A stretch of 64,000 nucleotides of DNA from an uncultured bacterium (GCA_937930175.1 CALGLP010000006.1:1749-65748), one strand, 5' to 3'. Counted from the first letter of the stretch, positions 6,652-21,369 are shown. The notes: a model not told the origin generated them from the letters alone. Numbers and translations: made by a program.

Positions 6652-6852
6652 ATGCCATTACCAAAACGACAACATTCAAGACAGCGTGGACGCAAGCGTC
6701 GAACGCATTGGAAAATTACGCTACCGTCCTTAGGGCTTTGCAGCCATTGCGGCAAACAGGTTTTACCTCATCGTGTTTGCCCATTTTGCGGTCACTACAA
6801 GGATAAGCAGGTTGTTGAGATCAAGATCAAAGAAAAGAAAAAGACAAAGTAG
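6652..6852 (+). CDS. rpmF: 50S ribosomal protein L32
   Basis: MPLPKRQHSRQRGRKRR N-terminus and CxxC...CxxC zinc ribbon. Lies between yceD and plsX. Confidence 0.85.
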   Translation: MPLPKRQHSRQRGRKRRTHWKITLPSLGLCSHCGKQVLPHRVCPFCGHYKDKQVVEIKIKEKKKTK

Positions 6853-6950
6853 TATCTCGTATGTAGTATTTTGTATTTAGCAAGTCAAGTGATTTCGTTG
6901 TTCACCAAATACTGTATGCTAACGACTAAATACTTCTGGAGGTCGTTGCC
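6853..6950. repeat. Intergenic palindromic element (GTATTTAG/CTAAATAC family)
   Basis: gtatttagcaagtc ... gacTAAATAC inverted arms between rpmF and plsX. Same motif family as the repeats flanking four-helix-bundle cassette 2. Confidence 0.35.
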
Positions 6951-7952
6951 ATGAATATTATTGTTGATGCGATGGGCGGAGATCATGCGCCCAAAGAAAT
7001 TGTTCAAGGCGTTGTTGAGGCTGTTAAGGCCTTTGATGTTTGCGTGACCTTGATTGGCATTGAGCCGCAGGTGCGCCAAGAGCTCGCCAAATATGAGTAC
7101 CCTAACGATCGTATTGAGCTGATTCATGCGGATGAAACCATTGACATGCATGATGTGGCAACAAGTTCGATTCGTAAAAAGAAAAACTCCTCGATTTCCG
7201 TTGGCATTAATCTCCTTAAAGATTCAAAAAAATATCATGCCTTTATCAGCGCTGGTAATACCGGCGCTGTGGTGTGTGCCTCGACGTTTTTCTTAGGCAT
7301 GCTTCCTGGCGTTGAGCGTCCAGCCATCGGCTTGGCGATCCCCACGTTAAAAAATTTTGCATTTCTTATCGATGTTGGCGCCAATACGGACCCCAAGCCT
7401 GAACATCTTTTGCAATCCGCTATCATGGCCAAGGTGTATGCGCAAAAAGTTATGAATATCAATGATCCGCGCATTGGATTGCTTAATATCGGTGCTGAAG
7501 AAACCAAGGGAACGGACTTTATCAAAGAGACCCACCGTCTTTTTCTAGACCGCCTTTCTAATTTTGCCGGCAATATCGAGGCCAATGAAATCTTTTCTGG
7601 TCGCTGTGATTGTATTATTTGCGATGGGTATGTGGGCAATGTCGTGATCAAGATCTCGGAAAGCTTGATGGAGTCAACCCTGGCGCTTGTCCGTCGAGAG
7701 GTAAAGAAGAGCCCTGTCGCGATGCTAGGAGCCCTTTTGATGAAGTCGTGCATGAAAGATATCAAGAAACACGCGGATTATAGTGAATATGGCGGCGCCC
7801 CGCTTTTAGGCGTCAATGGCCTTGTGATGATTAGCCATGGCCGCTCCAACGCCAAAGCGATTAAAAATGCGATCCGTGCCACGATTCGAGAGATTGAAAA
7901 CAATATGATTGATCATGTGATCAAAGAGGTTACGAACAATGAAGCACGTTGA
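6951..7952 (+). CDS. plsX: Phosphate acyltransferase PlsX
   Basis: 333 aa, full-length PlsX-like sequence. Canonical position before fabH. Confidence 0.9.
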   Translation: MNIIVDAMGGDHAPKEIVQGVVEAVKAFDVCVTLIGIEPQVRQELAKYEYPNDRIELIHADETIDMHDVATSSIRKKKNSSISVGINLLKDSKKYHAFISAGNTGAVVCASTFFLGMLPGVERPAIGLAIPTLKNFAFLIDVGANTDPKPEHLLQSAIMAKVYAQKVMNINDPRIGLLNIGAEETKGTDFIKETHRLFLDRLSNFAGNIEANEIFSGRCDCIICDGYVGNVVIKISESLMESTLALVRREVKKSPVAMLGALLMKSCMKDIKKHADYSEYGGAPLLGVNGLVMISHGRSNAKAIKNAIRATIREIENNMIDHVIKEVTNNEAR

Positions 7953-8916
7953 GATCATGAGTGTGGGCCATTATGTTCCTTCGAAAAGGCTGACCAATGC
8001 CGATTTAGAGAAAATGGTGGATACCTCCGACGAGTGGATCATTTCCCGCACGGGGATCAAAGAGCGTCGCATTGCTGGGGAGCACGAGAAAACAAGTCAT
8101 TTGGCTATTGAGGCCGCGCGTCAAGCTCTTCATAATGCCAAGCTTTCTCCTTTAAAAGTCGAACTTATCGTTGTTGCCACAACGTCGCCTGATAGCAGCT
8201 TTCCATCTGTGGCTTGTCTTGTTCAAAAAGCGTTGGGCATCAAGAATGCCGTGGCCTTTGATGTTTCGGCGGCTTGCGCTGGATTTGTCTACGCATTATC
8301 AACTGCGCATCAGTTTTTGTTAGCGGGCAGTTACAAAAATGCCCTGGTGGTCGCAGCCGACAGGCTCACCACGATGATCGATTGGCAGGATCGCGGGACC
8401 TGTGTCTTGTTTGGAGATGGGGCCGGGGCTTGTGTGATCGAAAAGTCGTCAAGAAACGGTATTCTTTCCGAGCATTTAGAAAGTTTTGGTGAATATGGCG
8501 AGATGATGCAGGTCATTACTCCGGAGACGCGACATCCATCGAGACCTAAGCAGGCCGAGGGCGTTTTGCCTTATATTCGGATGCAAGGCCCGGAGCTTTT
8601 TAAGATCGCGGTCAATTCCATGGCGGATTGCGTTGAGAAGGCCCTTCAAAAAGCCAAGATTGAAATTGCGGATGTGGCGTGTGTTGTTCCGCATCAGGCC
8701 AATGATCGTATTATTAGCGCAGTTGCCAAAAAACTCAATATCCCTAAGGAAAAGTTTTTTATCAATATTGAGAAATACGGTAACATGTCGGCGGCTTCGG
8801 CTGCGGTTGCGTTTTATGAGGCTATCCAGGTCGAGCGTATCCGCAAAGGCGACTATGTTGTGATCGTTGCCTTTGGCGCAGGCTTGGTTTCAGGAGCAAT
8901 GGTCATTAAATGGTAA
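7939..8916 (+). CDS. fabH: 3-oxoacyl-ACP synthase III
   Basis: 325 aa. Active-site Cys context (AACAGF) and C-terminal His/Asn regions. Confidence 0.9.
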   Translation: MKHVEIMSVGHYVPSKRLTNADLEKMVDTSDEWIISRTGIKERRIAGEHEKTSHLAIEAARQALHNAKLSPLKVELIVVATTSPDSSFPSVACLVQKALGIKNAVAFDVSAACAGFVYALSTAHQFLLAGSYKNALVVAADRLTTMIDWQDRGTCVLFGDGAGACVIEKSSRNGILSEHLESFGEYGEMMQVITPETRHPSRPKQAEGVLPYIRMQGPELFKIAVNSMADCVEKALQKAKIEIADVACVVPHQANDRIISAVAKKLNIPKEKFFINIEKYGNMSAASAAVAFYEAIQVERIRKGDYVVIVAFGAGLVSGAMVIKW

Positions 8917-9345
8917 TTATTAGCGTATGGCGTTTAGCGGATAGTCGATAGAAAAAGATATGCAAACAAAAAGTTTTAAAGATTTGATTGTCTGGCAGAA
9001 ATCATTTTTGCTGGTAAAAGAAACTTATTGTTTAGCTAAAGATTTTCCAAGAGAAGAGATCTATAGTTTATCCCAGCAAATGAAGCGAGCGGCTGTATCT
9101 ATCCCTTCTAATATTGCAGAAGGTTATGGCCGACGACATCAAAAAGAATACAAGCAATCATTATCTGTTGCGTATGGTTCATTGTGTGAGCTGGAAACAC
9201 AGTATTTATTATCCGTTGAGCTAAATTTCTTAAAGAAGTCTGACGTCTTTGATGGTTTGCTTAAAGAAGTCGGCAGTATGCTTTATCGAATGCTGAACCC
9301 TAAAATTTAACAAAAACTAACCGCTATACGCTATTTGCTTTCCGC
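8917..9345 (+). mobile_element. IR-flanked four-helix-bundle gene cassette 1 (rRNA-IVS-like element) inserted between fabH and fabD
   Basis: Inverted arms tagcgtatggcg (8921-8932) and cgctatacgcta (9322-9333) bracket a 116 aa ORF. Confidence 0.45.
8960..9310 (+). CDS. Four-helix-bundle protein (23S rRNA intervening sequence protein family)
   Basis: Hallmark sequence WQKSFLLVKETY...KRAAVSIPSNIAEGYGR...GSLCELETQ. 116 aa. Confidence 0.8.
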   Translation: MQTKSFKDLIVWQKSFLLVKETYCLAKDFPREEIYSLSQQMKRAAVSIPSNIAEGYGRRHQKEYKQSLSVAYGSLCELETQYLLSVELNFLKKSDVFDGLLKEVGSMLYRMLNPKI

Positions 9346-10279
9346 TATGAAAGATATTGCATTAATTTTTCCCGGTCAAGGCGCCCAAAAGGTGGGCATG
9401 GGAAAAGAATTTTATGATTCTTGTTCCAAGGCCAAGGCTGTCTTTGATGCGGCCCAGGCGATTTTAGGCAATGATTTCTTGAATGTTGTTTTTAATGGCC
9501 CGCAGGAAAAACTCACGCTCACATCCTATTCTCAGCCCGCCATTGTTGCGTTTTCCATCGCGGCTTTAGAAGCCTTTAAAAAAAGTGAAAAATTTAAAGA
9601 TGTGAACGTTAAGTTTGCGGCTGGCTTGAGCCTTGGCGAATACTCAGCGCTGATTGCCTGCGGCGGGTTGCCTGTGGAAGAAGGCATTCGCTTAGTTCAG
9701 AAGCGCGGCAGCTTTATGGAAGAGGCTTGTAAGCTTAACAATGGCAAGATGGCCGCCATTATTGGTTTTGGTAAAGAGCGGCTTAAAGAAATTTGTGCTC
9801 AAACGGGCGCGCAAGTCGCTAATTTTAATTCTTCCGAGCAGATTGTGATTAGTGGCCATGCGGATAAGGTCGAAGCCGCGGTTGCCCTGATCGAAAAAGA
9901 AGGTGCCAAGAACATTGTGATGCTTGAGGTGGCGGGTGCCTTTCATTCCAGCTTGATGAGCTCTGCTGCGGACAAATTTAAAGCGACGCTTGATTCTTTT
10001 ACCATCCATCCTCTAAGCATTCCTTTGGTTTCCAATGTCAGCGCTAGCGCTGTCTTGGATCCTCAGGTCATCCGAGAAAATCTGCCCAAGCAAATCGTTT
10101 CTTCAGTCCTCTGGGAAGATTCGATTCGTTTTATGGCGCTCCAGGGCGTAAAAACCTTTATCGAGATTGGGCCAGGACGCGTGCTCAAAGGCCTTATGCG
10201 AAAGATTGATCCAGGCCTCAAGGTTTTTAACATTGAGAAGCCGGAAGACATTGTCGCGCTGGCAGTCGATAGTATCTAG
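9335..10279 (+). CDS. fabD: Malonyl-CoA:ACP transacylase
   Basis: GQGAQ motif and GLSLGEYSAL active-site Ser motif. 314 aa. Confidence 0.9.
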   Translation: MLSAMKDIALIFPGQGAQKVGMGKEFYDSCSKAKAVFDAAQAILGNDFLNVVFNGPQEKLTLTSYSQPAIVAFSIAALEAFKKSEKFKDVNVKFAAGLSLGEYSALIACGGLPVEEGIRLVQKRGSFMEEACKLNNGKMAAIIGFGKERLKEICAQTGAQVANFNSSEQIVISGHADKVEAAVALIEKEGAKNIVMLEVAGAFHSSLMSSAADKFKATLDSFTIHPLSIPLVSNVSASAVLDPQVIRENLPKQIVSSVLWEDSIRFMALQGVKTFIEIGPGRVLKGLMRKIDPGLKVFNIEKPEDIVALAVDSI

Positions 10280-10282
10280 TCG

Positions 10283-10360
10283 TTAGTATTTAGTGAACAA
10301 CAAAAGCGTTTTAGTTGCTAAATACTAGATACTATTCACTAAATACTAGATACTAAGGAA
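10283..10360. repeat. Intergenic palindromic element (agtatttagtgaa / ttcactaaatact inverted arms)
   Basis: Arms separated by about 40 nt, plus ctagatactagatac motifs shared with the cassette-2 flanks. Confidence 0.4.
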
Positions 10361-10535: not shown

Positions 10536-10979
10536 ATGATGAACAGCCGACCCCTAAGCCTTAAAGAAATTGAGTCCATCCTGCCACAGCGTTATCCTTT
10601 TTTATTGATCGACAAAGTCTTAGATTACAAAGAAAATGATTATCTTGTCGCTGTCAAGAATATCACCGGCAATGAGTGGGCGCTAGGAGAAAAACAGGAT
10701 CAGCTGTCTGTTTTTCCAGAGATGTTGCTTGTGGAGGCAGCTTTGCAGGCTTCAATTCTTTTGTACCATATAAGTAAAAATCTTCCTGATGAAAATCCTT
10801 CGTATTTTATTGGTAAGATTGAATCTAGGTTTAGTGATTTACCCAGAGTTGGCGATTCACCAAAGATTTCGGTTTTTGCAGAAAAGCTTATGCGAAGCGG
10901 TGGTTATGCCAGCATTAAAGTAGAGAATCAGAAGGAAAAGTTAGTTAATATGGATATTTTTTTTAGCGTGAAAAGATGA
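10536..10979 (+). CDS. FabZ-like hotdog-fold protein lacking the catalytic His
   Basis: RYPFLLIDKVL...VKNITGNE...VFPEMLLVEAALQA aligns to the FabZ core. The GHFP histidine is replaced (GEKQD...SVFPE). The Glu is conserved. Confidence 0.6.
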   Translation: MMNSRPLSLKEIESILPQRYPFLLIDKVLDYKENDYLVAVKNITGNEWALGEKQDQLSVFPEMLLVEAALQASILLYHISKNLPDENPSYFIGKIESRFSDLPRVGDSPKISVFAEKLMRSGGYASIKVENQKEKLVNMDIFFSVKR

Positions 10980-12199
10980 TAAAGGAAGAAAATAAACAAA
11001 GAGTTGTTATCACAGGTCTAGGTGTTGTGTCGTCTATTGGCATAGGCTGGCAAGAATTCTGGAAAAACCTTTTGGCTGGAAAATCAGGCATTAGCAAGAT
11101 AGAGTCATTTGATACATCGCCATATGATCGTCATTTTGCCGGCGAAGTGAAGACTTTTGACCCTGTCCAGTTTATTTCAAAGCGTCGCGCTCTCCAAATG
11201 GGCCGCGCTTCGCAGATGGCTATTGCGGCTGGGCAATTAGCTCTCAAAGATGCTCAATTTGACAAGAAATATTTTCCGAGAGACGCAATAGGGGTCTGCG
11301 TTGGAACAACCATGGGTGAGCCCCAGATCCTTGAGGAGGCCATTTCCCGATCGATCCCTAAGGGCAAGTTTAAGGCAGATGGGATCTCGGCACTAACTTT
11401 TCCATCTAATTCGATTGTTTGCAATGTCTCTCATGAGCTTAAAGCTCGTGGGCCAAGTCTGCTTTTTGGGAATGCTTGTTCTGCGGGAAACTATGCCTTA
11501 GGATATTCTTTTGACCTTTTAAGAAGTGGTAAGGCAGATGTGATGATCGCGGGCGGTGTGGATGCTTTCTCAAAGATTGCCTTTACTGGCTTTAATAGGC
11601 TCTTGGCCATGGCGCCAGAAAAATGCCAGCCCTTTGATAAAAATCGCAAAGGTATGATGCTTGGGGAAGGCTCAGGCATGATGGTTCTTGAAACCCTTGA
11701 ATCAGCTATAAAGCGAAAGGCCTTTGTTTATGCCGAAGTCCTTGGCTATGGCCTTTCTTGTGATGCGGCAGACATGACAGCTTCGCATTGGGATGTAATC
11801 AAAAAGGCAACACAGAAGGCGCTAAGAAATTCTGACGTCAGGGCTGATCAAGTTGATTATATTTCTGCGCATGGAACAGGGACGATAGAAAACGATCGCG
11901 TCGAATGTCGAGCCATTGAAGCTGTTTTTGGTAAACGTTCGAAAGAAATTCCTATCTCATCCATCAAGTCAATGCTTGGCCATACGCTGGGGGCTGCTGC
12001 AGCGATCGAGGCTATTGCGTGCTGCCTAGCTATCAAGGAGCAGAAACTGCCTCCAACTGTTAATTTTGAAACAAGGGATCCAGAGTGTGACATTGATTGT
12101 GTGCCGAATAAGGCGCGGAAACACAAAGTGAAAGTAGCTTTAAATAACTCCCAGGCTTTTGGTGGGAATAATGCAAGTGTGGTTTTTCGAAGAGCATAA
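10976..12199 (+). CDS. Beta-ketoacyl-ACP synthase (KAS I/II-like)
   Basis: Cys-His-His triad contexts: GNACSAGNYALG, SAHGTGT, GHTLGAAAA. 407 aa. Start overlaps the upstream gene's stop (ATGA). Confidence 0.8.
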   Translation: MIKEENKQRVVITGLGVVSSIGIGWQEFWKNLLAGKSGISKIESFDTSPYDRHFAGEVKTFDPVQFISKRRALQMGRASQMAIAAGQLALKDAQFDKKYFPRDAIGVCVGTTMGEPQILEEAISRSIPKGKFKADGISALTFPSNSIVCNVSHELKARGPSLLFGNACSAGNYALGYSFDLLRSGKADVMIAGGVDAFSKIAFTGFNRLLAMAPEKCQPFDKNRKGMMLGEGSGMMVLETLESAIKRKAFVYAEVLGYGLSCDAADMTASHWDVIKKATQKALRNSDVRADQVDYISAHGTGTIENDRVECRAIEAVFGKRSKEIPISSIKSMLGHTLGAAAAIEAIACCLAIKEQKLPPTVNFETRDPECDIDCVPNKARKHKVKVALNNSQAFGGNNASVVFRRA

Positions 12200-12279
12200 A
12201 ATACAAATCAGTATGTTTTATAAGTTTCACAAGACAACCTTTAAGCTGTAAATATTTATTTTGGAAAGGCTTTAGAGAG

Positions 12280-13431
12280 TTGATTATAAAAAGAAAAGAT
12301 TACATATTTAATGACGAATTCTACAAAACAACTTGTTTCTTAGGAAGAGACTATTTGTGCCAACTAATCCTAGAAGTATTTATTGCTCTTGATATTTTTA
12401 GCTCTTTAAAGGAAGGTTTCTTTTCTTTTGTTGATTTAGCAAGAATAAACAAATTGCCTGAAAATCGTTATTATCATTTAAATTGGATGGTTGAATTTCT
12501 TTTTCATAATAATTATTTAGATTTTCAATTTGTATCTGGTCTTAGGAAATATCAATTGAAAAGAAACATTCAGGCATCAGGATCTTTATATTATCGTAAT
12601 TTAATTGTCCGAACAAGTAGTCAGATGATACCGTCTTGTGATTTGATGGAACATGTTGCAAAGAATTATCCAGATTTTTTGCAGGGGAAATTGAATGGCT
12701 TTGAAATTCTTTTTATAAAAGATAAGATGAAGTTATGGAAGCAATATTTCAGCAACGAGCACTTAGGATATTCAGTTTATAATTCTTTTGGCGCAGAAGC
12801 CTTTATTGTTTGGATGCCGAAAGGTAATTTTAGAGTTCTTGAAGTTGGAGGAGGGACTGGTAATGCGTGTTTATCAATTCTTCAGCTTTTGAAGAAGAAT
12901 TTATCTTTTGATTTGCTTGATAAGTACATTTTTAGCGATATTTCTCCTCTTTTTATGCGGATGGGAAAGGATCTAATTGAGAATAATCTGGGATCTCTTG
13001 AAAACTTTGCCACTAAGAAGATTGATTTTAATGTGCCTTTCGATGTCCAGGGAATAGAAAATGATTCATGTGACGTTGTCTATGGCGTGAATTCATTGCA
13101 TGTAGCAGAAAACATAACGAAAGTATTAGGCAACATAATAAGAGCATTGAAGCCTGGCGGTAAGATAATAATTTCTGAGAGCGTGCGACAGACTAGACAA
13201 CATTTATTAATTCAGGAATTTATATTTAATTTGCTTGATGAATACACTGGAATTCGTAATACTCAAAATGATAGCTTTGCAAAAGGATTCCTTGCTTATA
13301 CTGATTGGCTTGATATCTTCAAAGTAGTAGGTTTGCGCAATATAAGATACGCATTGAACGTCGAAAATAGCCTTGCGAAGCCAACGTATCCAATTTTAGC
13401 TGCTGTTTTTAAAGGAGAAAAGAATGGCTAA
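12280..13431 (+). CDS. Class I SAM-dependent O-methyltransferase (Methyltransf_2/COMT-like, with N-terminal dimerisation domain)
   Basis: VLEVGGGTGNACLSIL SAM motif. About 150 aa N-terminal helical domain. Non-ATG (TTG) start inferred. Very AT-rich coding sequence. Confidence 0.55.
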   Translation: MIIKRKDYIFNDEFYKTTCFLGRDYLCQLILEVFIALDIFSSLKEGFFSFVDLARINKLPENRYYHLNWMVEFLFHNNYLDFQFVSGLRKYQLKRNIQASGSLYYRNLIVRTSSQMIPSCDLMEHVAKNYPDFLQGKLNGFEILFIKDKMKLWKQYFSNEHLGYSVYNSFGAEAFIVWMPKGNFRVLEVGGGTGNACLSILQLLKKNLSFDLLDKYIFSDISPLFMRMGKDLIENNLGSLENFATKKIDFNVPFDVQGIENDSCDVVYGVNSLHVAENITKVLGNIIRALKPGGKIIISESVRQTRQHLLIQEFIFNLLDEYTGIRNTQNDSFAKGFLAYTDWLDIFKVVGLRNIRYALNVENSLAKPTYPILAAVFKGEKNG

Positions 13432-14728
13432 AGATTTTAACAAGCGTCGTATAGTTATTTCCGGGATTGGGTCGTTGAGTTCGTTAGGAATTGGTAGCGA
13501 GTCTATATGGAAGAATTTTGTTAACGGAAAGTGTAATGTAGAAAATCTTTCGGCTTCTGGATTTGATGGAATTTTAGATAAATTTAAAGTGTATAAGATT
13601 AAGAAATTTAGTAGAAATATATTTAACTTTGATAAAAAAGTATATAGCGAGATATTGTATTGGAAGAATCAACATAAATCTTTTGATTTACTCTATTTTT
13701 TTTCATCTATTCAGATTGCGATTGAAGATAGTAGAATTAAGGAAAAAGACTTGAAGAGAGCAGGATTAGTCTTAACTCACGAAAACCCTGGAGTTGAGCA
13801 ATTTTGTTCTGATGTGATAAATGAGACATATAGGATGAATTCCCTCCAATGCTTTAAATCAAAAAGTGAATATTTTCAAAAACTTTACCATAAATTTACA
13901 AAAAATGTTAATGATTTGCAGACTTTTATATATCTTTATTTTGTTGGTAAGATGTTTAAGATTCAGGGATATTCTTTGTTTGTGAATAATTCATGTGCTT
14001 CTGGCTTGTTTGCACTTGAAGCTGCTGCTGAAAGTATTCGAAGCGGAAAATCTGAAGTAGTTGTTGTTGCTTCTTCTGAGCATCCTTCAATTTATAAACA
14101 TTTATGGTTTAAGCAGCTAGGACTATTATCTAGAAGGGGAGAAATAAGGCCTTTTGCTGAAGGGAGGGATGGTTTTCTTTGTGGAGAAGGTGGAACTGCA
14201 ATAATTTTAGAAAGCTTGAATCACGCACGTAATCGTGGTGCAAAAATATATGCTGAATATCTTGGGGGAAGCTTTTTGCTTGATAGTTGGAAAATAACTC
14301 TTCCGAATGTATCCGAAAGAAATTATTCTAGGACTCTTCAAGCAGCATTGAGGAACTGTAATCTTGAAGCAGGTCAAGTTGATTTTGTGTGTGCGCATGG
14401 GTTAGGGTCACAACTTTTAGATTTATACGAGGCCAGATCATTTCAAGAAGTTTTTAAAGGAAGAGGAAATATGCCGCATATCACAGCTTTTAAGCAATAT
14501 GTTGGCCATACTTTGGGTAATTGTGCGCTTCTAGAAGTAGTTTTAATGGTTCTATGCTTAAAAAATGATTTTATCGTTCCTGTGATGGGAGGTAGTAGCA
14601 TTGATTCAAATATAAAAATACAATTAGTAAAAGAGGCTTTAGAAAGAAGAATTAAGATAGGGTTGAAATCTGTTTGGGGTTTCGGTGGTTATAACGCAGC
14701 AGCGATATTTAAGAAATTCCATGGATAG
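13424..14728 (+). CDS. Divergent beta-ketoacyl synthase-like protein
   Basis: Retains Cys (NNSCASGLFALEAA) and both His (CAHGLGS, VGHTLGNCA). N-terminal region diverges from FabF/B. AT-rich. AAGGAG RBS. Confidence 0.6.
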   Translation: MAKDFNKRRIVISGIGSLSSLGIGSESIWKNFVNGKCNVENLSASGFDGILDKFKVYKIKKFSRNIFNFDKKVYSEILYWKNQHKSFDLLYFFSSIQIAIEDSRIKEKDLKRAGLVLTHENPGVEQFCSDVINETYRMNSLQCFKSKSEYFQKLYHKFTKNVNDLQTFIYLYFVGKMFKIQGYSLFVNNSCASGLFALEAAAESIRSGKSEVVVVASSEHPSIYKHLWFKQLGLLSRRGEIRPFAEGRDGFLCGEGGTAIILESLNHARNRGAKIYAEYLGGSFLLDSWKITLPNVSERNYSRTLQAALRNCNLEAGQVDFVCAHGLGSQLLDLYEARSFQEVFKGRGNMPHITAFKQYVGHTLGNCALLEVVLMVLCLKNDFIVPVMGGSSIDSNIKIQLVKEALERRIKIGLKSVWGFGGYNAAAIFKKFHG

Positions 14729-14731
14729 TTA

Positions 14732-16906
14732 ATGAGAATAAACTTATTTTCAATATTAGCATTTATAAGCTTTCTAATTAGCGCAACGGTTTTTTTCATT
14801 GTTTTGCAGAACCGGAAATCTAACCTGCATAATCAATGGCTACGGTTTATCTTTGCCGCAGCATTTTGGGAATTCAGTGCGTTTCAAATCGGAATATCAC
14901 AAACAGGAGATAGAGCTTTATTTTGGTGGAAAATAGCTCATGTTGGCATTATTTTCCTTGCGATATTTTTGTTCCACGTTGTTTATGAGTTTTGTGGACT
15001 AAAGAAGAAAAGAATTTTATTCTTTATTTATGCGCAAGGGTTTTTCTTTTTATTTTTTAATTTTTTTACAAATTTTTTCTTATCTGGAACGAGATACGTT
15101 TTTTCATCTTTTTATTATGGAACACTAGGTCCCTTCTATCATCCTTTTATGATTATTTGGCTCCTTATTGTTTTTTATAGTCATATTGAGCTATTTATGT
15201 CTTATGAAAAGTTTCAAGGGGTAAGAAGAACACAGCTAAAATATTTTATCGCTTCAAATTTGGTAGGATTTTCAGGAGGATTGACCAATTTCCTTCCAGC
15301 CTATGGCATAGATATTTTTCCTTTTTATGGGTGCTTTAGCACTGCCTTGTACTGCGCCATATTCACATATGCTATTTTAAAGCATAGGATCATGGATATC
15401 CGCTTAGCCATAACTAGAACTGGCATCTTTATTCTTGTTTATTCTTTTGTTCTTGGCATTCCCTTTGCCATGGCTTTTGGTTTACAAAAGTATTTAACAG
15501 CTTTTTTTGGTCCGACCTGGTGGATTGTCCCATTAATTACGTCAACACTTTTAGGCACTGCAGGTCCTTTTATTTATTTCTTTATCCAACGCAAGGCAGA
15601 AGACACCCTTTTGCGAGATCAAAAGCGATATCAAACAACCCTTAAGCAAGCCTCAGCCGGTATGACGCGCATTAAAGATTTGAAGAAGCTCTTGAATATG
15701 ATTGTTTATATCTTGGCGAGGACAGTCAATATTACGCATGCGTTTCTTTATTTATATGATGCAAAAAGCCGTGATTATGCCTTAGAGGCAACCCGTGGAG
15801 AAAGGGCTTCCAAGGAAAGTTATTATTTAAACAAAAAATCTTCGTTGATAAGCTATTTAGAGAGAGTCAGGGCGCCGATTGTTTTTGAAGAGATCAGGCA
15901 GCAGAGTCAAGATTATGATAGTGATGAGCTCAAAGATGTTCAAAATGAGTTGATTATGTTAGGTGCCGCAGTTGCGGTCCCTATTTTTACAGAAAAAAGG
16001 CTTTTGGCTATAGGGATTTTGGGTAAGAAAAAGTCAGGAGCAATGTATACTCAAGATGATTTAATTGTTTTTTCTATTCTTGCCAACCAAGTCGCTTTAG
16101 CCATTGAAAATGCCCAGTTTTATGAAGAGTCGAAACAGACCCAGGAGCAGCTTTTTCAGGCAGAGAAAATGGCCACCATCGGTACCATGGCTGATGGGCT
16201 TTCGCATCAGATCAACAATCGCTTGCATACGCTTGGGTTTATTGCTGGAGACGCGCTTGACACGATCAAATTAAGTAAAGAGGTGCAGAATCCTGATAAA
16301 TTTCAGGAAATTTTAGCGGAGATCTCCAAGGCGCTTGTCAAGATTCAGGATAACGTGCGTCAGGGCGGGGAGATTGTCCAAGGTCTTTTGCGCTATACCC
16401 GTAAAGGCGAGGAAGGCTTTGGAGATGTGGTCCTTGACAAATTGGTGGATGAAGTGATCGAGATGGCACAGTTTAAGATCAAAAAAGAATATGTGTCGAT
16501 CGTTAAAGATTATGCCCAGGATCAGCCCTTGATCCGCGGAAATTTTACACAGCTGCAAGAAGTCCTTTTTAACATCATTGATAATGCCTATGACGCGATC
16601 ATGCAAAAGAAGTCTGAGATGGGTGACGACCATTTTATGGGCAAGATCAAGATCTCGACGCGTCAGACAGAAAAGTTTTTAGAGGTTAGCCTTTTAGACA
16701 ATGGCATGGGGGTTAAGGATGAGGACCAGATCAAGCTCTTTACGCCATTTTTTACAACAAAGTTTTTCAACAAAAAGGGCACAGGCCTTGGGCTTTATGT
16801 GATCAAGAAAATAGTTGAGGATAATCATCAAGGCGAGGTCTTTATCTCCTCAGAGTACAAAGTTGGCACACTGTTTGTGATACGCTTGCCGATGGGAAAG
16901 CAGTGA
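14732..16906 (+). CDS. Sensor histidine kinase with polytopic N-terminal membrane domain and GAF domain
   Basis: About 9 TM helices, then a GAF-like region. H-box (GLSHQINNRLHT) and HATPase_c N/G1/G2 boxes (NAYDAI, DNGMGV, GTGLGL). Confidence 0.8.
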   Translation: MRINLFSILAFISFLISATVFFIVLQNRKSNLHNQWLRFIFAAAFWEFSAFQIGISQTGDRALFWWKIAHVGIIFLAIFLFHVVYEFCGLKKKRILFFIYAQGFFFLFFNFFTNFFLSGTRYVFSSFYYGTLGPFYHPFMIIWLLIVFYSHIELFMSYEKFQGVRRTQLKYFIASNLVGFSGGLTNFLPAYGIDIFPFYGCFSTALYCAIFTYAILKHRIMDIRLAITRTGIFILVYSFVLGIPFAMAFGLQKYLTAFFGPTWWIVPLITSTLLGTAGPFIYFFIQRKAEDTLLRDQKRYQTTLKQASAGMTRIKDLKKLLNMIVYILARTVNITHAFLYLYDAKSRDYALEATRGERASKESYYLNKKSSLISYLERVRAPIVFEEIRQQSQDYDSDELKDVQNELIMLGAAVAVPIFTEKRLLAIGILGKKKSGAMYTQDDLIVFSILANQVALAIENAQFYEESKQTQEQLFQAEKMATIGTMADGLSHQINNRLHTLGFIAGDALDTIKLSKEVQNPDKFQEILAEISKALVKIQDNVRQGGEIVQGLLRYTRKGEEGFGDVVLDKLVDEVIEMAQFKIKKEYVSIVKDYAQDQPLIRGNFTQLQEVLFNIIDNAYDAIMQKKSEMGDDHFMGKIKISTRQTEKFLEVSLLDNGMGVKDEDQIKLFTPFFTTKFFNKKGTGLGLYVIKKIVEDNHQGEVFISSEYKVGTLFVIRLPMGKQ

Positions 16907-17415
16907 AGAGTGAATAGTGAAAAGTATCTAGCAGTGGTTGAATAAGGGTTAGAGGAATAGTTGATTAAAGGGGTAAAAAGCAAATTGTGAATGGCGATGA
17001 AGATTCAGCAAAAGACGTAAAAATTAGAAGCTTCAGGAATCTAAATATTTGGAATCTTGGTAAGGAAATTGTTGTTGAGACTTACAAAATTACTAGAAAT
17101 TTTCCCAAAGAAGAGGCTTTTGGCCTTACATCGCAGATGCGTAGGGCAGCTGTTTCCATTCCTTCGAATGTTGCAGAAGGGTTTAATCGTTATCATAATA
17201 AGGAGTACAAACAGTTTCTTTTTCTTGCTCTGGGTTCCTGCGCTGAGCTTGAAACGCAGGCTGAAATATCCCTTGAATTAGATTATATTGATATTGCTAC
17301 CAAAGAAAGATTGCTTGAGAAGATCGTATATGAGTCAAAGATGATTCGAAATCTTATTAAAAAGTTGTAAGTTCCTTTATTTTTACTAGATGCTCTTCAC
17401 TAGATACTAGATACA
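16907..17415 (+). mobile_element. IR-flanked four-helix-bundle gene cassette 2
   Basis: Upstream gtgaagagtgaatagtgaaaagtatctag and downstream ctagatgctcttcactagatactagatac are mutually inverted (gtgaagag/ctcttcac, tatctag/ctagata). Confidence 0.45.
16987..17370 (+). CDS. Four-helix-bundle protein (23S rRNA IVS protein family)
   Basis: RRAAVSIPSNVAEGFNR...GSCAELETQ. 127 aa. Confidence 0.8.
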   Translation: MNGDEDSAKDVKIRSFRNLNIWNLGKEIVVETYKITRNFPKEEAFGLTSQMRRAAVSIPSNVAEGFNRYHNKEYKQFLFLALGSCAELETQAEISLELDYIDIATKERLLEKIVYESKMIRNLIKKL

Positions 17416-17435
17416 ATTGTAAAGGAGATTAACTA

Positions 17436-17804
17436 ATGTCAAAATTACTAATTGTCGACGACGAAGCGGATATCCGCGAATTTGCAAAACATTTTTTTCA
17501 AAAGCGGGGCATTGATGTTGTGATCGCGTCCGGCGGCCAGGAAGCTCTAGATCTGATCGCCTTAAGCAATCCGGATTTGACACTGCTGGATGTGCGTATG
17601 GGGGACATGACCGGGGTTGATGTTTTAAAGAAGTTACGTGATGCCGGCAACCAATCAAAGGTAATCATGGTCACAGGGGTTGAAGATCCCGTTATTGTTA
17701 AGCAGATCCAAGAGCTGGGTGTTTGCGGCTATGTTCACAAGCCCTTGGCTTTAGATGAGCTCGAACACGTTGTGATGAAGGAGTTGAAAGAATTAAAAGG
17801 TTAG
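17436..17804 (+). CDS. Single-domain response regulator (receiver only)
   Basis: LLIVDDE, LLDVRMGDMTG (phosphoacceptor Asp), MVTG and KP motifs. 122 aa. Confidence 0.85.
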   Translation: MSKLLIVDDEADIREFAKHFFQKRGIDVVIASGGQEALDLIALSNPDLTLLDVRMGDMTGVDVLKKLRDAGNQSKVIMVTGVEDPVIVKQIQELGVCGYVHKPLALDELEHVVMKELKELKG

Positions 17805-17809
17805 GTGAA

Positions 17810-17940
17810 GGGTATCTTGTATTTAGTATCTAGCCAGCAAGGCAGAGAAAAGCGATTATTAAGAATTTGATATTATTCGGCAGATACTCGATGTGTTTTG
17901 TCTTTTACTAAATACTATTCACTAGATACTAGATACGTTT
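17810..17940. repeat. Intergenic palindromic element (gtatttagtatctag ... ctagatactagatac)
   Basis: Inverted arms flank about 100 nt between the receiver and HD-GYP genes. Same motif family as the cassette-2 repeats. Confidence 0.4.
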
Positions 17941-17949: not shown

Positions 17950-19125
17950 ATGCTTAACTACAAAAAAGAACTTGAAAAAGCAAGCCGATTGATGATCCGG
18001 ATCCACGATCCGGGTATTTTGATCCGTTTGATTATCCGCATTATTGTCCGCAAGGTTGATGTCAAGCACGCGGGGGTTCTTCTTTTTGATGCTGCCCGCG
18101 ACTGTTACGTTCTTACGATCTCCGGCGGAGAGGCGGGCACGAGAATTCCTCAGGGTTTCGCGAAATTTGTTCCAGAGAATCCTTTGATTAGATTTTTCAC
18201 GGATAAAGAATATAAACTGATCGTTAAGAAGCGTGGGATCCTGACCTTAGAGAGCTTAAATCAAATGATTTGGGGGGAAAACATTTTTCCCCAGGCGCAA
18301 GAGCGAAAGGCCTTTTTGCAGAAGATTGCCGAGCAAATGGAGATGTTTAATGTCTCTGTCTGTATCCCAGCTTATTTTCGTGATCATTTAAGCGCTTTGC
18401 TTTTGTTGGGTGAGAAAGCCAATGCTAAGGTTTATCATCAGGATGAATTTGATTTTTTAGCCGCGCTATCCTCCGACGTGGCCATGGCGATTCAAAACGC
18501 GCAATTGATCGAGGATTTGCGCAAAGAGGTTGAAAAGAATAAAACCCTTTTTATCAACACAACGCTTTCGCTTGCCTCAGCTATCGAGGCCAAGGATCGC
18601 TATACGCGAGGCCATACCGAGCGGGTCACAAAGTTTGCGCTGGCGATCGCAGACGAACTTAATAGCAAGGGCATCATCCATCTACCCAAGAAATTCTTAA
18701 ACGATCTCTATATTGCGAGCCTTTTGCACGATATTGGAAAGATCGGCGTTCCTGAGCAAATTTTATCAAAAGAAACAAGGCTTACCGACGAAGAATTTAT
18801 CCAGATCAAGAAGCATCCTGAACGTGGTGCGGAGATCTTAAAGACGTTGCCAGAATTTGAAGAGTCGCTTAAAGGTGTCAAATATCATCACGAGCGCTAT
18901 GATGGCAAGGGATACCCTGAAGGGCTTAAAGGGGAAGAGATTCCTTTGATTGCTGCCATTGTCGCGGTTGCGGATACCTATGATGCTATGACCTCAGATC
19001 GAACATATCGCAAGGCTCTTTCGCGAGAAGCCGCGATTGCTGAGATTGACAAGAATGTTGGTATTCAATTTAATCCTGTTATTGCCCAGGCGTTTTTAGA
19101 AGTGTTAAAAAGAGAAGGAATATAG
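17950..19125 (+). CDS. HD-GYP domain c-di-GMP phosphodiesterase with N-terminal GAF-like domain
   Basis: HDIGKIGVP and HHERYDGKGYPEGL motifs. 391 aa. Confidence 0.85.
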   Translation: MLNYKKELEKASRLMIRIHDPGILIRLIIRIIVRKVDVKHAGVLLFDAARDCYVLTISGGEAGTRIPQGFAKFVPENPLIRFFTDKEYKLIVKKRGILTLESLNQMIWGENIFPQAQERKAFLQKIAEQMEMFNVSVCIPAYFRDHLSALLLLGEKANAKVYHQDEFDFLAALSSDVAMAIQNAQLIEDLRKEVEKNKTLFINTTLSLASAIEAKDRYTRGHTERVTKFALAIADELNSKGIIHLPKKFLNDLYIASLLHDIGKIGVPEQILSKETRLTDEEFIQIKKHPERGAEILKTLPEFEESLKGVKYHHERYDGKGYPEGLKGEEIPLIAAIVAVADTYDAMTSDRTYRKALSREAAIAEIDKNVGIQFNPVIAQAFLEVLKREGI

Positions 19126-19156
19126 TTTTTAGTGTCTTGGCACGATGTGCCAGATA

Positions 19157-20770
19157 CTAAATGCTGCTCTTTGTGGGTAGTTCAATGATAAATTTTGTTC
19201 CCTTTCCAGGTGTACTTTCTACCAAAATTCTTCCATTGTGATCTTCAATAATCCGCTGTGTAATGGAAAGTCCTAGGCCCGTGCCATGATCTTTTTTGGT
19301 ATAAAAGGGATCAAAGATGTGCTTGAGGTCTTTAGGCAAGATGCCGATACCTGTGTCTTCAACGATGATGGTGATCTTTTTTTCATGAGGTATTATCCCG
19401 ACAGATAGTTCTCCACCGGTGTTCATTGCGTCAATCGCGTTGAGGAGGATATTGAGAAGCGCCTGGCGAAGGCGGTTTAAGTCAGCGTTTATTAGAAAGT
19501 TGCTGTTGGGGGCGTATTTCCTAATGACCTTAATATTGTGCTTTAAGAAGTTGCTGTTAAGAAAATCAACTGTGTTGTCGACCAGTGAACAGATATCAAG
19601 GTTCTTTAAGTTTAAGGGGGATGGCTTGGCAAACTCAAGAAGTTCGTGCACAAGTTGGTCAATGCGATCAACCTCGCGTCCTACAATTTTAGAGAAATTT
19701 TTAAGAAACTCTTTATCGTCAAGTTTTTCTGGAAGGTATTCAGTGAACGTCTTGACAGCCGTCAGGGGATTGCGGATTTCGTGCGCAATGCCTCCTGCAA
19801 GGATGCCAATCGATTTTAGCTTTTCAGCGCGCAGGAGCTCTTCTTTAAGAAATTCGTTTTCATGCACAATTTCTTCATGAGTGCCGTGGAAAAAGAGTTT
19901 ATCGATGAAATTTTGTATTTTGTTTTTAAGTGGATAGAATATTACAGAAATAATCGCACAGGAAGAAACGGATGCAAACATCGTTTGATAGCCAGTTAGT
20001 TTCTGAAATATTTTCTCAAACACGATAACAAAGACTAGATAAATGATAGAAATTAAAGCTGCCAAAAGTGAGTAAGCAATGCTGCGCCTAAAGAAAATAT
20101 TTATTTCCATTAATTTGTGCTTGATGATTGCGTACATAAAGGTCAAGACAAAAATTGTTGCTGGTATGAAGCCAATAGGCCTTATGTTAATTGTATAATT
20201 TGGAAGAAAATCAAGTCCGGATAGGGTAAAAATTCCATAACCAATCAGGATGTATTTTATTTGAGATCGCTTTAAATCTGGTATTCTTTTATTTCTTGAT
20301 GCGATTACTAGAAAACTAAATGCAAATATGGCAATAAAGAGAAACATGATAAGAAAGTATGGATGCAGGATCCCTGCCCTAGGGTAGGGGCCCCACGGAT
20401 AGTTGTGCATGTTTGAAATGATTAAGTTACTTGTTAGGATGAGCGTGCACACAAAGATGCTATATGTATATATAACTATTAAATATTTTCTTAGATTTAA
20501 AAGATTTAGATATAGATAAACGAAATGAAAGATGAAGGCTGGAATTAAGGCGATGCCACAATATGAAATCCGTATCCAGAAGGGGATTTCTTCTCCCATA
20601 GACCCCTTGCATAACATAAGAAGGTAATATGACAACCAGGTGGTAACGGAAAGACACAAAAGAAAGAAGATTTGATTAATTCTTGACCAGAGCCCTTTGA
20701 GTAAAACAAAGATTCCAGAATTGAGAATTAAGGTTGCGCATATAAGTTGTGATATTAAGAGAATTTTCAT
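19157..20770 (-). CDS. Sensor histidine kinase with polytopic N-terminal membrane domain
   Basis: N-terminal multi-TM region. H-box GIAHEIRNPL. HATPase motifs NAIDAM, DTGIGI, GTGLGL. Confidence 0.8.
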   Translation of the reverse strand: MKILLISQLICATLILNSGIFVLLKGLWSRINQIFFLLCLSVTTWLSYYLLMLCKGSMGEEIPFWIRISYCGIALIPAFIFHFVYLYLNLLNLRKYLIVIYTYSIFVCTLILTSNLIISNMHNYPWGPYPRAGILHPYFLIMFLFIAIFAFSFLVIASRNKRIPDLKRSQIKYILIGYGIFTLSGLDFLPNYTINIRPIGFIPATIFVLTFMYAIIKHKLMEINIFFRRSIAYSLLAALISIIYLVFVIVFEKIFQKLTGYQTMFASVSSCAIISVIFYPLKNKIQNFIDKLFFHGTHEEIVHENEFLKEELLRAEKLKSIGILAGGIAHEIRNPLTAVKTFTEYLPEKLDDKEFLKNFSKIVGREVDRIDQLVHELLEFAKPSPLNLKNLDICSLVDNTVDFLNSNFLKHNIKVIRKYAPNSNFLINADLNRLRQALLNILLNAIDAMNTGGELSVGIIPHEKKITIIVEDTGIGILPKDLKHIFDPFYTKKDHGTGLGLSITQRIIEDHNGRILVESTPGKGTKFIIELPTKSSI

Positions 20771-20774
20771 ATTG

Positions 20775-20840
20775 TCTATAGGGCTTTTTTACCGCCTTCA
20801 ACACCTCTTCGGCGTTAAAAGGCTTGACGATATAGTCGCA
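20775..20840 (-). repeat. Remnant copy of receiver-gene 3' end (would encode ...DYIVKPFNAEEVLKAVK)
   Basis: About 52/55 nt identical to 21446-21500, the 3' end of the receiver CDS 21426..21788. Lies directly upstream of the kinase start. Confidence 0.6.
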
Positions 20841-20866
20841 AGCCAGCCAAGGCATTACGCCAACTC

Positions 20867-21112
20867 TTAAGCCTGAGCGACTTTGTGCAATATTTCAGAA
20901 ATAAACGTTTGGTATTTGACGCCGAGCTTTTCAGCCTTTTGTTTCAAGGTTCTGATGTCGTTGCTGTTGACCCGGATATTCAGGACAGCATCTTTTTTGC
21001 GCGCGGTAATGGCATTGACAATCTCTGTGTGTTCATCTTTGCCCAGAGGAATGAATTGTTCTAGGCTTTCTTCAATAAGCTTTTCTTCTTTTGTTAGTGT
21101 TATTTTTCTCAT
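20867..21112 (-). CDS. BrnA/CopG-like type II antitoxin
   Basis: 81 aa. Pattern ...NIRVNSNDIRTLKQKAEKLGVKYQTFISEILHK typical of BrnA-family antitoxins. Start overlaps the upstream toxin stop (ATGA). Confidence 0.6.
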   Translation of the reverse strand: MRKITLTKEEKLIEESLEQFIPLGKDEHTEIVNAITARKKDAVLNIRVNSNDIRTLKQKAEKLGVKYQTFISEILHKVAQA

Positions 21113-21369
21113 GATGTCTTTCCTTTTTTGTAAAGCTTCATTAGTTTTCTGCTTGGAAATATTGTTTTAAGGAAAATTTTGTTGCTCTCAACGACATAGG
21201 GCACTGCCCACAGGTATCCTTTGTGATCAAACACAAGGATTTATTGATGATCTTTTCCAAGGTTTTTTCGTATGTCAATGAGTCGGGCATGGATAATTTC
21301 TTCGAACGAGACTCCGCGCGTTCGTTTTAGCCGTTTACTTTTTAGTAAGTTCCACCTGATTTCTTTCAT
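21109..21369 (-). pseudogene. BrnT/DUF497-like toxin gene interrupted by an in-frame TAA
   Basis: Minus-strand translation MKEIRWNLLKSKRLKRTRGVSFEEIIHARLIDIRKNLGKDHQ*ILVFDHKGYLWAVPYVVESNKIFLKTIFPSRKLMKLYKKGKTS. The stop at 21241-21243 is in frame. Confidence 0.5.

Follow-up and report, generated by a model that had tools for sequence, protein, structure and literature searches.

The 64,000-nucleotide stretch of DNA analysed here (positions 1749–65748 of CALGLP010000006.1, assembly GCA_937930175.1, from an uncultured bacterium; hereafter called the window) carries, directly behind the primary lipid synthesis genes plsX, fabH and fabD, a block of four genes that encode a FabZ-like hotdog protein, a β-ketoacyl synthase (KS1), a methyltransferase (MT) and a second ketosynthase (KS2). 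We interpret this block as a reduced, lineage-specific derivative of a module of the type of Cluster I of anammox bacteria, and give this explanation as a whole, including the mechanism proposed below, an even chance of being correct. Cluster I (KustE3603–3608) is the putative ladderane biosynthesis cluster and comprises the acyl carrier protein (ACP) amxACP, amxFabZ, amxFabF2, amxFabFmut, a phytoene-dehydrogenase homologue and a B12-dependent radical S-adenosylmethionine (SAM) enzyme. A first-pass annotation of the window had placed four genes at positions 10536–14730 after plsX-fabH-fabD, and both their coordinates and their content proved right:

hotdog, 10536–10979, + strand: 147 aa, FabZ/amxFabZ-like but His-less, predicted pseudo-dehydratase
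KS1, 10976–12199, + strand: 407 aa, predicted amxFabF2-type β-ketoacyl synthase
MT, 12280–13431, + strand: 383 aa, putative free-standing homologue of polyketide synthase (PKS)-type C-methyltransferases
KS2, 13424–14728, + strand: 434 aa, distinct ketosynthase family, Cys191-His325-His362

All four open reading frames (ORFs) are intact. The hotdog and KS1 genes overlap by 4 nt and the MT and KS2 genes by 8 nt, which suggests translational coupling, and a kinase gene starts 3 nt past KS2. The TTG start of MT is backed by conserved N-terminal residues of its homologues. The block and its flanks are identical to contig DAIMJH010000013.1 of the metagenome-assembled genome (MAG) GCA_036722365.1, and the same four genes were recovered in several independent samples (locus L001 of our collection is the identical locus). 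The closest relatives of the window are annotated as Candidatus Omnitrophota, and its host is probably a member of the Omnitrophota.

The best match of KS1 in the PDB is chain B of entry 9s5h (440.8 bits), followed by Iga11, the ketosynthase of ishigamide synthesis (327 bits), whereas none of more than 25 canonical FabF structures scored above 309 bits. Chain B carries Cys, His, Thr and Thr at the positions which, after an offset of five residues, correspond to C165, H298, T300 and T302 of the published amxFabF2, and chain C carries Val, Asn and Glu at the triad positions, matching the published amxFabFmut. Thus, 9s5h represents the amxFabF heterodimer. The Cys-His-His triads which the first-pass annotation had ascribed to both ketosynthases were borne out by alignment, that of KS1 being intact at the positions C165/H298/H335 of amxFabF2 and that of KS2 consisting of C191/H325/H362. 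With the fabF equivalog model TIGR03150 KS1 reached 414.5 bits and thus stayed below the cut-off of 493.75 bits. It did clear the generic NCBIfam model "beta-ketoacyl-ACP synthase II" (NF005589; 403.6 versus 387 bits), a cut-off that does not discriminate because the KS1 proteins of the full modules described below pass it too. In a neighbour-joining (NJ) tree computed without bootstrap and with few canonical references, amxFabF2 nests inside a clade of 50 KS1 sequences that includes KS1 of the window. On these sequence grounds KS1 is classified as an amxFabF2-type synthase. In the same tree KS2 forms a clade of its own; neither ketosynthase thus clusters with housekeeping FabF/FabB proteins, the placement which the first-pass annotation had itself named as speaking against a specialized module.

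The relationship to Cluster I extends to the gene neighbourhoods of relatives. Using the KS2 family alignment we gathered 80 loci from genomes, added further ones via individual proteins, and annotated them by BLAST to reference proteins; synteny was counted over 62 core loci, the denominators being the loci with enough flanking sequence. The conserved order is (KR)-(KS0)-(ACP)-hotdog-KS1-(ACP)-(PDH or MT)-KS2-(PDH)-7TM kinase-receiver-HD-GYP, where KR stands for a ketoreductase, KS0 for a ketosynthase homologue with a destroyed triad, PDH for a phytoene-desaturase homologue and 7TM for seven transmembrane segments. KS1 lies 5' of KS2 in 40 of 43 core loci, and among the same number a hotdog gene is present in 35, an ACP gene in 34, KS0 in 30 and KR in 26; PDH was found in 20 of 34 loci and the 7TM kinase 3' of KS2 in 41 of 45. 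A full module, as it occurs in Nitrospirota and in many Omnitrophota, combines a FabG-like KR, KS0, ACP, an amxFabZ-like dehydratase, KS1, an active KS2 and usually the PDH flavoenzyme. KS0 of locus L014 scored 357 bits with chain C of 9s5h (amxFabFmut) and at most 284 bits with canonical FabF, the triad is destroyed in all 44 KS0 proteins, and amxFabFmut falls inside the KS0 clade of the NJ tree. The best matches of the module ACP are three amxACP entries (7qv0_D, 7auf and 9s5i_E). ORFs of 300 aa or more with the radical-SAM motif CxxxCxxC were not found within 9 kb of KS2 in a crude motif test of 63 core loci, including the window. Taken together, these similarities of sequence and order identify the full module as a homologue of anammox Cluster I which does without the B12 radical-SAM enzyme and has KR, KS2 and a signalling set in addition.

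Two further features of full modules were observed. Locus L023 (1238–11298) contains two tandem KS0-hotdog-KS1 units, the upstream one also with KR, in front of a single KS2-PDH-kinase arrangement, which indicates duplication of the core within a module. In several full modules an acyl-ACP-reductase-like gene is located 5' of KR (for example L014, 3684–4697).

The top PDB sequence match of the hotdog protein of the window is Kuenenia amxFabZ (8ayd), and the protein has a bulky Ile at the tunnel position (Ile69 of amxFabZ) where canonical FabZ proteins have Gly. This substitution is a hallmark of amxFabZ (Dietl et al.). Among the features that define the amxFabZ type, the window protein has the tunnel Ile and the Glu, but not the catalytic His. 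The first-pass annotation had described a FabZ-like hotdog protein that lacks the His of the GHFP motif and keeps the Glu, and the alignment agrees: NEWALGEKQD...FPEML..VEAALQ stands against NEPxFxGHFP...MPGVL..IEAMAQ of FabZ and amxFabZ, so that G-E-K-Q replaces G-H-F-P (catalytic His to Lys) and P-E-M-L replaces P-G-V-L, while Glu67 of the central helix is retained. The protein scored 32 bits with Pfam FabA and 70.1 bits with NCBIfam FabZ (NF000582), the latter below the cut-off of 113 bits. Its AlphaFold (AF2) model (pLDDT 87) superimposes on E. coli FabZ and amxFabZ with TM-scores of 0.82–0.87, the former His loop being the least confident stretch. Membership in the AmcE/AmcF proteins of cispentacin synthesis was considered and rejected (55 and 227 bits versus cut-offs of 140 and 325).

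The window does not stand alone in lacking the His, which is missing throughout a subfamily. One search returned 29 clusters of His-less relatives down to 43% identity. A second, exhaustive search placed only His-less proteins among its first 35 representatives and 60 or more of them among the best 150; the subfamily thus extends over no fewer than 60 clusters, with identities down to about 40%. Invariant residues occupy 28 positions, among them those of an LPxxxPFLLID start, KNxTGNEW and E67, Q71 and A72 of the central helix. By contrast, the former His loop is variable and at times expanded by up to 45 residues, the residue at the position of the oxyanion-hole Gly may be E, Q, P or G, and no alternative catalytic residue is conserved in this loop. 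As judged from these alignments, the His-less hotdogs form a coherent, conserved subfamily rather than a product of random decay, that is, a retained protein predicted to operate without His/Glu chemistry, which makes them a new pseudo-enzyme candidate in lipid synthesis.

Loss of the His coincides with the loss of other module components. Neither a hidden Markov model (HMM) for ACP run on the six-frame translation of the whole 64 kb (best E value 0.89) nor BLAST with reference proteins for KR, KS0 and PDH produced a match in the window; the ORF map and the reference searches likewise did not reveal fabG, acpP or a canonical fabF, and neither the 256-nt spacer between fabD and the hotdog gene nor the rest of the window contains a remnant of ACP or fabG. 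The absence of fabG/acpP/fabF, ACP and KR stated in the first-pass annotation was thus confirmed. An Rfam scan of the same spacer returned sub-threshold noise only, and promoter and terminator scans from 6.5 to 19.3 kb gave counts equal to the shuffled expectation. The genes upstream of the block are:

recG, rsmD, coaD, yceD and rpmF, 5' of plsX, + strand
plsX, 6951–7952, + strand: Pfam FA_synthesis, 345 bits; first gene of the primary lipid operon behind which the module is appended
fabH (β-ketoacyl-ACP synthase III), 7939–8916, + strand: NCBIfam fabH, 425 bits, over the cut-off
small 23S-rRNA-IVS-family gene, 8960–9310, + strand: between fabH and fabD
fabD (malonyl-CoA:ACP transacylase), 9335–10279, + strand: TIGR00128 fabD, 317.5 bits versus a cut-off of 260.9

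The location next to the primary fatty acid synthesis genes, which the first-pass annotation had called unusual, turned out not to be an isolated case and is conserved across an Omnitrophota lineage represented by eight loci of shared architecture (the window, L041, L052, L069, L071, L078, L095 from Ca. Aceula meridiana, and L096). In all eight the module directly follows plsX-fabH-fabD and has no KR, KS0 or ACP, and the complete order recG-rsmD-coaD-yceD-rpmF-plsX-fabH-fabD-His-less hotdog-KS1 recurs in L095 and L096. The hotdogs of this lineage have no catalytic His wherever the motif was inspected (the window, L041, L052, L069, L071, L078 and the proteins defining L095 and L096), in contrast to those of modules that keep KR, KS0 and ACP, all of which retain GHFP...PGVL. 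amxFabZ dehydrates amxACP-bound substrates only (PMC10139942). Because of this dependence, it would be a coherent evolutionary step to lose the catalytic His along with the dedicated ACP.

What follows KS1 in this lineage is variable. The stretch between KS1 and the kinase gene holds:

window: MT + KS2
L041, L071: PDH + KS2
L069, L078: KS2 alone
L095: PDH + thioester-reductase-like short-chain dehydrogenase/reductase (SDR)
L096: thioester-reductase-like SDR alone

PDH of relatives thus occupies the slot held by MT in the window. GC content at third codon positions (GC3) is 0.28 for MT and 0.25 for KS2 as compared with approximately 0.5 for plsX, fabH and fabD, and the similarity to L012 and L017 is relatively greater for KS1 and KS2 of the window than for the genes flanking them. 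We read the slot as an exchangeable cassette and consider MT-KS2, with its foreign base composition, to have been acquired fairly recently. The SDR genes that replace KS2 (L095, 13140–14228; L096, 11665–12741; TIGR01746 at 141 bits, NAD_binding_4), together with the acyl-ACP-reductase-like genes of full modules mentioned above, suggest that some variants of the module release aldehydes or alcohols.

KS2 belongs to a large, previously unclassified family of proteins of about 430 residues which is found mainly in Omnitrophota and Nitrospirota. C191, H325, K357 and H362 are invariant in this family, the Cys-His-His triad being present in all 79 members. The best PDB score of KS2 is only 152 bits, its score with TIGR03150 is 194.7 bits (cut-off 493.75), and its clade in the distance (NJ) tree is far from FabF, amxFabF2, amxFabFmut and Iga11. 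With at most 50% identity to other members, KS2 of the window is the most divergent protein of the family. Its active-site Cys and both His residues are kept, and we therefore rejected the possibility that it is a chain-length factor (CLF) of the type II PKS kind. KS1-like (about 38%) and KS2-like (about 32%) genes are also present in Paenibacillaceae (Paenibacillus, Longirhabdus, Cohnella and Brevibacillus; L080, L086–L094), at most loci together with a C-methyltransferase-like gene, KR and ACP. The one examined, L092 (2687–12290), has in addition a truncated ketosynthase-like ORF, a class-III aminotransferase and an AraC regulator, and has no 7TM kinase; on account of these differences we consider the Paenibacillaceae loci a different cluster and not the same module. 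Their cultured members are possible culturable handles on the KS2 family.

MT had been annotated as a COMT-type O-methyltransferase at first pass, an assignment that did not hold. Pfam matches are to generic class-I methyltransferase models, Methyltransf_12 foremost, whereas Methyltransf_2 (PF00891) reached only 17.1 bits, over 36 residues and below its cut-off of 22.3, and COMT-type structures appeared as noise (E values of 0.3–2). When PDB was searched with the single sequence or with a profile of 25 members, the matches were CurJ, DisA, AprA MT2, PsoF, LovB, PksCT and 7dmb only (profile E values 4e-38 to 2e-17), of which 7dmb is an unnamed "putative methyltransferase" and all others are PKS C-methyltransferase domains. 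The profile aligns at positions 30–388 of 397 (about 350), including the N-terminal helical part (DisA, E 3e-36; CurJ, E 4e-38). E188, G190, G192 and G194 of the SAM-binding motif GxGxG are invariant in the family, as are H274 (NxLH) and E300 among its 25 members; the latter two align with NVLHA...YE of CurJ. In PKS C-methyltransferases such a His-Glu dyad is the machinery for Cα-methylation of β-ketoacyl groups on carriers (PMC9821293). MT is thus a predicted homologue of PKS-type C-methyltransferases and not an O-methyltransferase. UbiE models scored 20–27 bits versus cut-offs of 158–378, which led us to reject a UbiE/MenG identity; to judge from these scores MT appears to be neither UbiE nor an rRNA methylase, the two types of enzyme that the first-pass annotation had listed as arguing against a role in lipid synthesis.

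A possible counterpart of MT in anammox bacteria is AmxMT1 (PDB 8HD2), a free-standing, ACP-binding SAM-dependent methyltransferase of type II fatty acid synthesis (FASII) clusters with a His-Glu dyad, for which Cα-methylation of short β-ketoacyl-ACPs, leading to branched lipids, has been predicted. Like AmxMT1, MT of the window is a stand-alone, PKS C-methyltransferase-like enzyme of a FASII-like cluster with a His-Glu dyad. The dyads differ (H304-E308 in AmxMT1, H274...E300 in MT), however, MT is closer to the modular-PKS domains of CurJ, DisA and AprA, and AmxMT1 was not matched by the profile even at E≤10. We therefore rejected orthology, none being detectable, and regard AmxMT1 as an analogue of MT in terms of function. 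The MT family is small (44 clusters). Its members adjoin KS2 in Nitrospirota (L016, L020) and in Omnitrophota (L012, L017, L052), and a distant relative (29% identity) adjoins an ACP gene and an ApeI/ApeP-like gene. MT is a mobile accessory, because its relatives do not always accompany ketosynthase genes. An ORF of 941 aa directly 5' of KS2 in L012 (7171–9996; Omnitrophota MAG GCA_041643015.1) joins a complete 7TM-HisKA-HATPase kinase with an MT of full length that is 40% identical to that of the window. This fusion hints independently at a functional connection of the kinase with the tailoring enzymes.

Taking into account the predicted activities we propose the following mechanism. Having no ACP of its own, the module would use general acyl-ACP, with malonyl-ACP being delivered by the adjacent FabD. 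KS1 would condense these to a β-ketoacyl-ACP, which the C-methyltransferase, judging from its His-Glu dyad, could methylate at Cα of the β-keto intermediate. KS2, whose gene is positioned after that of the tailoring enzyme in all arrangements, may act as a second active condensing enzyme that passes the tailored chain on. Housekeeping FabG, FabZ and FabI would complete the reduction to a methyl-branched acyl chain destined for a membrane lipid; such a chain on the general ACP is the likely product. In relatives equipped with PDH or thioester reductase, the products would instead be desaturated or released by reduction. The membrane kinase, receiver and HD-GYP protein, whose genes are presumably co-transcribed, could couple the state of membrane and lipids to signalling and to regulation of the block.

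The His-less hotdog would not catalyse dehydration with a His/Glu dyad and most likely serves as a non-catalytic partner or as an acyl-ACP-binding subunit. The active site of FabZ is composed of His from one subunit and Glu from the other. For this reason a heteromer of the hotdog with canonical FabZ would keep one complete site, to which the retained Glu could contribute across the subunit interface. Catalytically dead hotdog partners have a precedent in mycobacterial HadA/HadC with HadB, and the B. subtilis YcsD-FabZ heteromer model (PDB 9a6k) is among the structure matches listed for the hotdog. Common to these systems is that a hotdog paralogue without catalytic residues could associate with a functional dehydratase and influence which substrates it accepts; unlike the Had proteins, the window protein is FabZ-like and not MaoC/Had-like, and we infer the pairing purely by analogy.

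The main rival to this explanation holds that KS1, with or without the hotdog, is the housekeeping elongating synthase of the lineage, which replaced fabF behind plsX-fabH-fabD, and that only MT and KS2 are accessory and recent. The usual fab operon has fabG-acpP-fabF at the position that is held here by the His-less hotdog and KS1. These two form an invariant pair in all members of the lineage, even where KS2 is missing, KS1 clears NF005589, no other fabF is present in the 64 kb, and the base composition of MT and KS2 is foreign. Yet, the score of KS1 with amxFabF2 far exceeds that with any canonical FabF structure, KS1 remains below the equivalog cut-off, full-module KS1 proteins clear the generic model as well, a separate fabF-rnc accompanies the module in the Nitrospirota locus L013, and amxFabF2 is inactive alone. 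We consider a housekeeping role of KS1 a genuine, if doubtful, possibility. A different proposal concerns the hotdog only, which could have been neofunctionalized as an acyl-ACP thioesterase or as an AmcE-like decarboxylase/cyclase acting on the product of KS1. Hotdog thioesterases use a single carboxylate, Glu67 is invariant at the start of the central helix of an otherwise intact FabZ fold, AmcE is matched weakly (55 bits), and release-type enzymes (thioester reductase) occupy the downstream slot in L095 and L096. The AmcE score is, however, far under its cut-off and under the FabZ score, and the variable replacement of the oxyanion-hole Gly together with the lack of any other conserved catalytic residue in the loop makes such an activity improbable.

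That the block represents the decaying remains of a once full module, devoid of current function, is, in our view, very unlikely. Loss of the catalytic His in an unconstrained loop, loss of KS0, ACP and KR, disappearance of the hotdog from L012 and L017, the low GC content of MT and KS2, and the divergence of KS2 would fit such a scenario, but four intact ORFs with overlaps suggestive of translational coupling, the presence of every family-invariant catalytic residue in KS1, KS2 and MT, the conservation of the His-less hotdog across its subfamily, and identical copies from several independent samples do not. The first-pass annotation had likened the block to specialized lipid pathways, those of the aryl-polyene/flexirubin type among them. 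The likeness to a specialized pathway stands inasmuch as the block is type-II FAS/PKS-like and differs from housekeeping fabG-acpP-fabF; that to aryl-polyene or flexirubin synthesis does not, the nearest relatives being Cluster I amxFabF2 and amxFabZ and no aryl-polyene hallmark being present. In a pigment cluster, the ketosynthase pair, a dehydratase and the methyltransferase would yield an O-methylated polyene. Several matches point in this direction: canonical hotdogs of full modules match the ApeP-like and ApeI-like Pfam families, the distant MT relative has an ApeI/ApeP-like neighbour, KR of L014 matches flexirubin reductase FlxB below threshold, and the second-best PDB match of KS1 is the polyene-forming Iga11. 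In fact, the Iga11-Iga12 (ishigamide) and aryl-polyene systems share with the module the logic of discrete ketosynthase, dehydratase, KR and ACP components. They differ in that KS2 is not a CLF, that the CLF-like KS0 is absent from the window, and that polyene-specific accessory genes are missing: according to the ORF map and reference searches the window contains no CLF partner, ACP, KR, aryl-starter enzyme, LolA/MMPL export protein or acyl/glycosyl-transferase. Given also that the best matches are anammox proteins, that MT is of the C-methyltransferase type and that the hotdog has lost the dehydratase His needed for polyene formation, a pigment cluster is scarcely credible.

Several observations weigh against a Cluster I-derived, methyl-branching module. 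The ACP, KR, FabZ and FabI partners on which it relies are presumed to be encoded in the genome outside the 64-kb window, and the tree that groups KS1 with amxFabF2 is the unbootstrapped NJ tree with few canonical references mentioned above. amxFabF2 requires amxFabFmut for activity, yet the window has no KS0. As for KS2 as a substitute partner of KS1, a net-charge proxy for the interface (helix-loop-helix 110–140, helix 196–206) did not reproduce the published amxFabF2/amxFabFmut asymmetry, crude sequence charge being the measure. L095 and L096 keep the His-less hotdog and KS1 in spite of having neither KS0 nor KS2; in these two loci KS1 would have to act by itself or together with a partner encoded elsewhere, and MT and KS2 would be accessories and not part of the core. 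Relatives of MT are also encoded away from any ketosynthase gene (L007, L008). L012 and L017 have no hotdog at all, so that this protein may be dispensable. Finally, the link of Cluster I to its product is unproven even for anammox bacteria, and biochemical work is confined to anammox members of the cluster.

The kind of system described here is already known, and the window represents a variant with parts not previously described in the literature that we searched. Ladderanes have been described only from anammox Planctomycetota and have not been reported in Omnitrophota or Nitrospirota. antiSMASH has included a "ladderane" class since version 3, which was built on Rattray et al. 2009. These authors pointed out synteny with Desulfotalea psychrophila and put forward an anaerobic pathway resembling the synthesis of polyunsaturated fatty acids (PUFA). 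"Ladderane" biosynthetic gene cluster (BGC) calls have since been reported in Omnitrophota, Desulfobacterota and other non-anammox phyla, with a suggested role in the synthesis of unusual fatty acids or in anaerobic PUFA synthesis. These BGCs and the Desulfotalea clusters reflect the same phenomenon, namely a FabF paralogue, a dehydratase and a phytoene desaturase outside anammox bacteria; by contrast with the component-by-component matching done here, they are automatic calls or coarse synteny. In a limited search of the literature we found no description of such a match to amxFabF2, amxFabFmut, amxACP and amxFabZ outside anammox bacteria, and the same holds for the KS2 family, its linkage to a 7TM kinase and HD-GYP protein, the fabD-linked reduced variant, the His-less hotdog subfamily and a cassette slot with a CurJ-like C-methyltransferase. 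Papers from 2023 and 2026 state that Cluster I is exclusive to ladderane producers and that its CLF is the first in fatty acid synthesis. The 44 KS0 proteins qualify both statements.

Direct comparison with Cluster I reveals likenesses and differences at two levels. KS1 of the window is nearest to amxFabF2, its hotdog has amxFabZ as top PDB match and shares the bulky tunnel residue, and full modules of the Nitrospirota type share the ACP-dehydratase-ketosynthase run. On the other hand, the modules of relatives possess an extra active KS2, KR and the kinase/receiver/HD-GYP set and no radical-SAM enzyme, while the window has neither ACP, KS0 nor PDH, has a His-less hotdog and has gained a C-methyltransferase.

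Ladderane biosynthesis has been an open problem for two decades, and no genetics is available for anammox bacteria. Homologues of Cluster I (four proteins plus the phytoene-desaturase-family enzyme) occur in dozens of Omnitrophota and Nitrospirota genomes with only the radical-SAM enzyme missing, and the search for the ladder-forming step thus narrows to this enzyme. The core common to these clusters probably produces, or primes, an unusual chain other than a ladderane, and natural "deletion series" like the window can be used for comparative work. It is tempting to speculate, in a joint reading that we hold only tentatively and regard as rather unlikely in its entirety, that the Cluster I core is an ancient, widespread module for anaerobic tailoring of acyl chains and is not specific for ladderanes. 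One lineage of Omnitrophota would have wired it into the primary fab operon, with the His-less hotdog and an amxFabF2-type ketosynthase as fixed core, and a plug-in slot (C-methyltransferase, desaturase, extra ketosynthase or thioester reductase) would set the type of lipid. In this joint reading, a lipid-sensing 7TM kinase and an HD-GYP protein would form a circuit with a shared ACTAnATACTA operator, and only the B12 radical-SAM enzyme would be ladderane-specific.

The constant linkage to 7TM kinase and HD-GYP genes suggests such a lipid-sensing circuit. A 7TM-GAF kinase of the window type follows KS2 in the 41 of 45 loci counted above, and receiver and HD-GYP genes are conserved 3' of the kinase in relatives. 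Downstream of KS2 the window contains:

7TM-GAF histidine kinase, 14732–16906, + strand: Pfam HisKA_7TM, GAF and HATPase_c
second IVS-family gene, 16987–17370, + strand: between kinase and receiver
stand-alone receiver (response regulator), 17436–17804, + strand: kept 3' of the kinase in relatives
HD-GYP-type (HD_5/HD) phosphohydrolase, 17950–19125, + strand: Pfam HD_5 and HD in the identical locus L001; conserved in relatives

A heptad-like motif, ACTA[AG]ATACTA, has 16 matches in the window with at most one mismatch, as compared with 1.19 expected. All copies are confined to spacers of the plsX/hotdog/receiver/HD-GYP block, often in inverted-repeat pairs:

6850–6935: rpmF-plsX
10270–10355: fabD-hotdog, six boxes forming an inverted repeat
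17399–17416: IVS-receiver
17817–17834 and 17907–17931: receiver-HD-GYP
19123–19133: just past HD-GYP

The same motif is present at homologous spacers of L041 and L095. These boxes are candidates for a shared operator or for an element like the repetitive extragenic palindromic (REP) sequences. Folding of the motif clusters as RNA yielded modestly significant hairpins (z scores of -3.6, -2.4 and -1.6), a result that is compatible with a DNA operator as well as with an RNA element because inverted repeats are expected to fold in this way. A candidate binder of the boxes is the helix-turn-helix (HTH)-cupin protein encoded at 21820–22386. Its gene is part of a block on the minus strand (19157–22386) that is convergent to the module, encodes a second 7TM histidine kinase (HisKA_7TM and HisKA), a second receiver and the HTH_XRE-cupin regulator, and is syntenic in L001, L012, L041, L069, L095 and L096.

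Some features of the window concern other sequence classes. Genes of the 23S-rRNA-IVS family (four-helix bundle) with a low GC3 of 0.32 are located at 8960–9310, 16987–17370, 52209–52583 and 53179–53550; the latter two were called from the ORF list only, and the one at 53179–53550 looks split by a stop codon. In relatives, IVS-family genes appear elsewhere in the same module, along with AbiEii, HepT/NTase and GIY-YIG genes, in the manner of mobile insertions. The ORF at 25014–32897 encodes 2627 aa, the first of which resemble a signal peptide, and a strong negative AT skew (-0.345) extends over membrane-protein genes at 38001–40000. A short degenerate tandem array of 7-nt (GGACTTT) and 28-nt units lies at 52597–52725, in the spacer next to an IVS-family gene.

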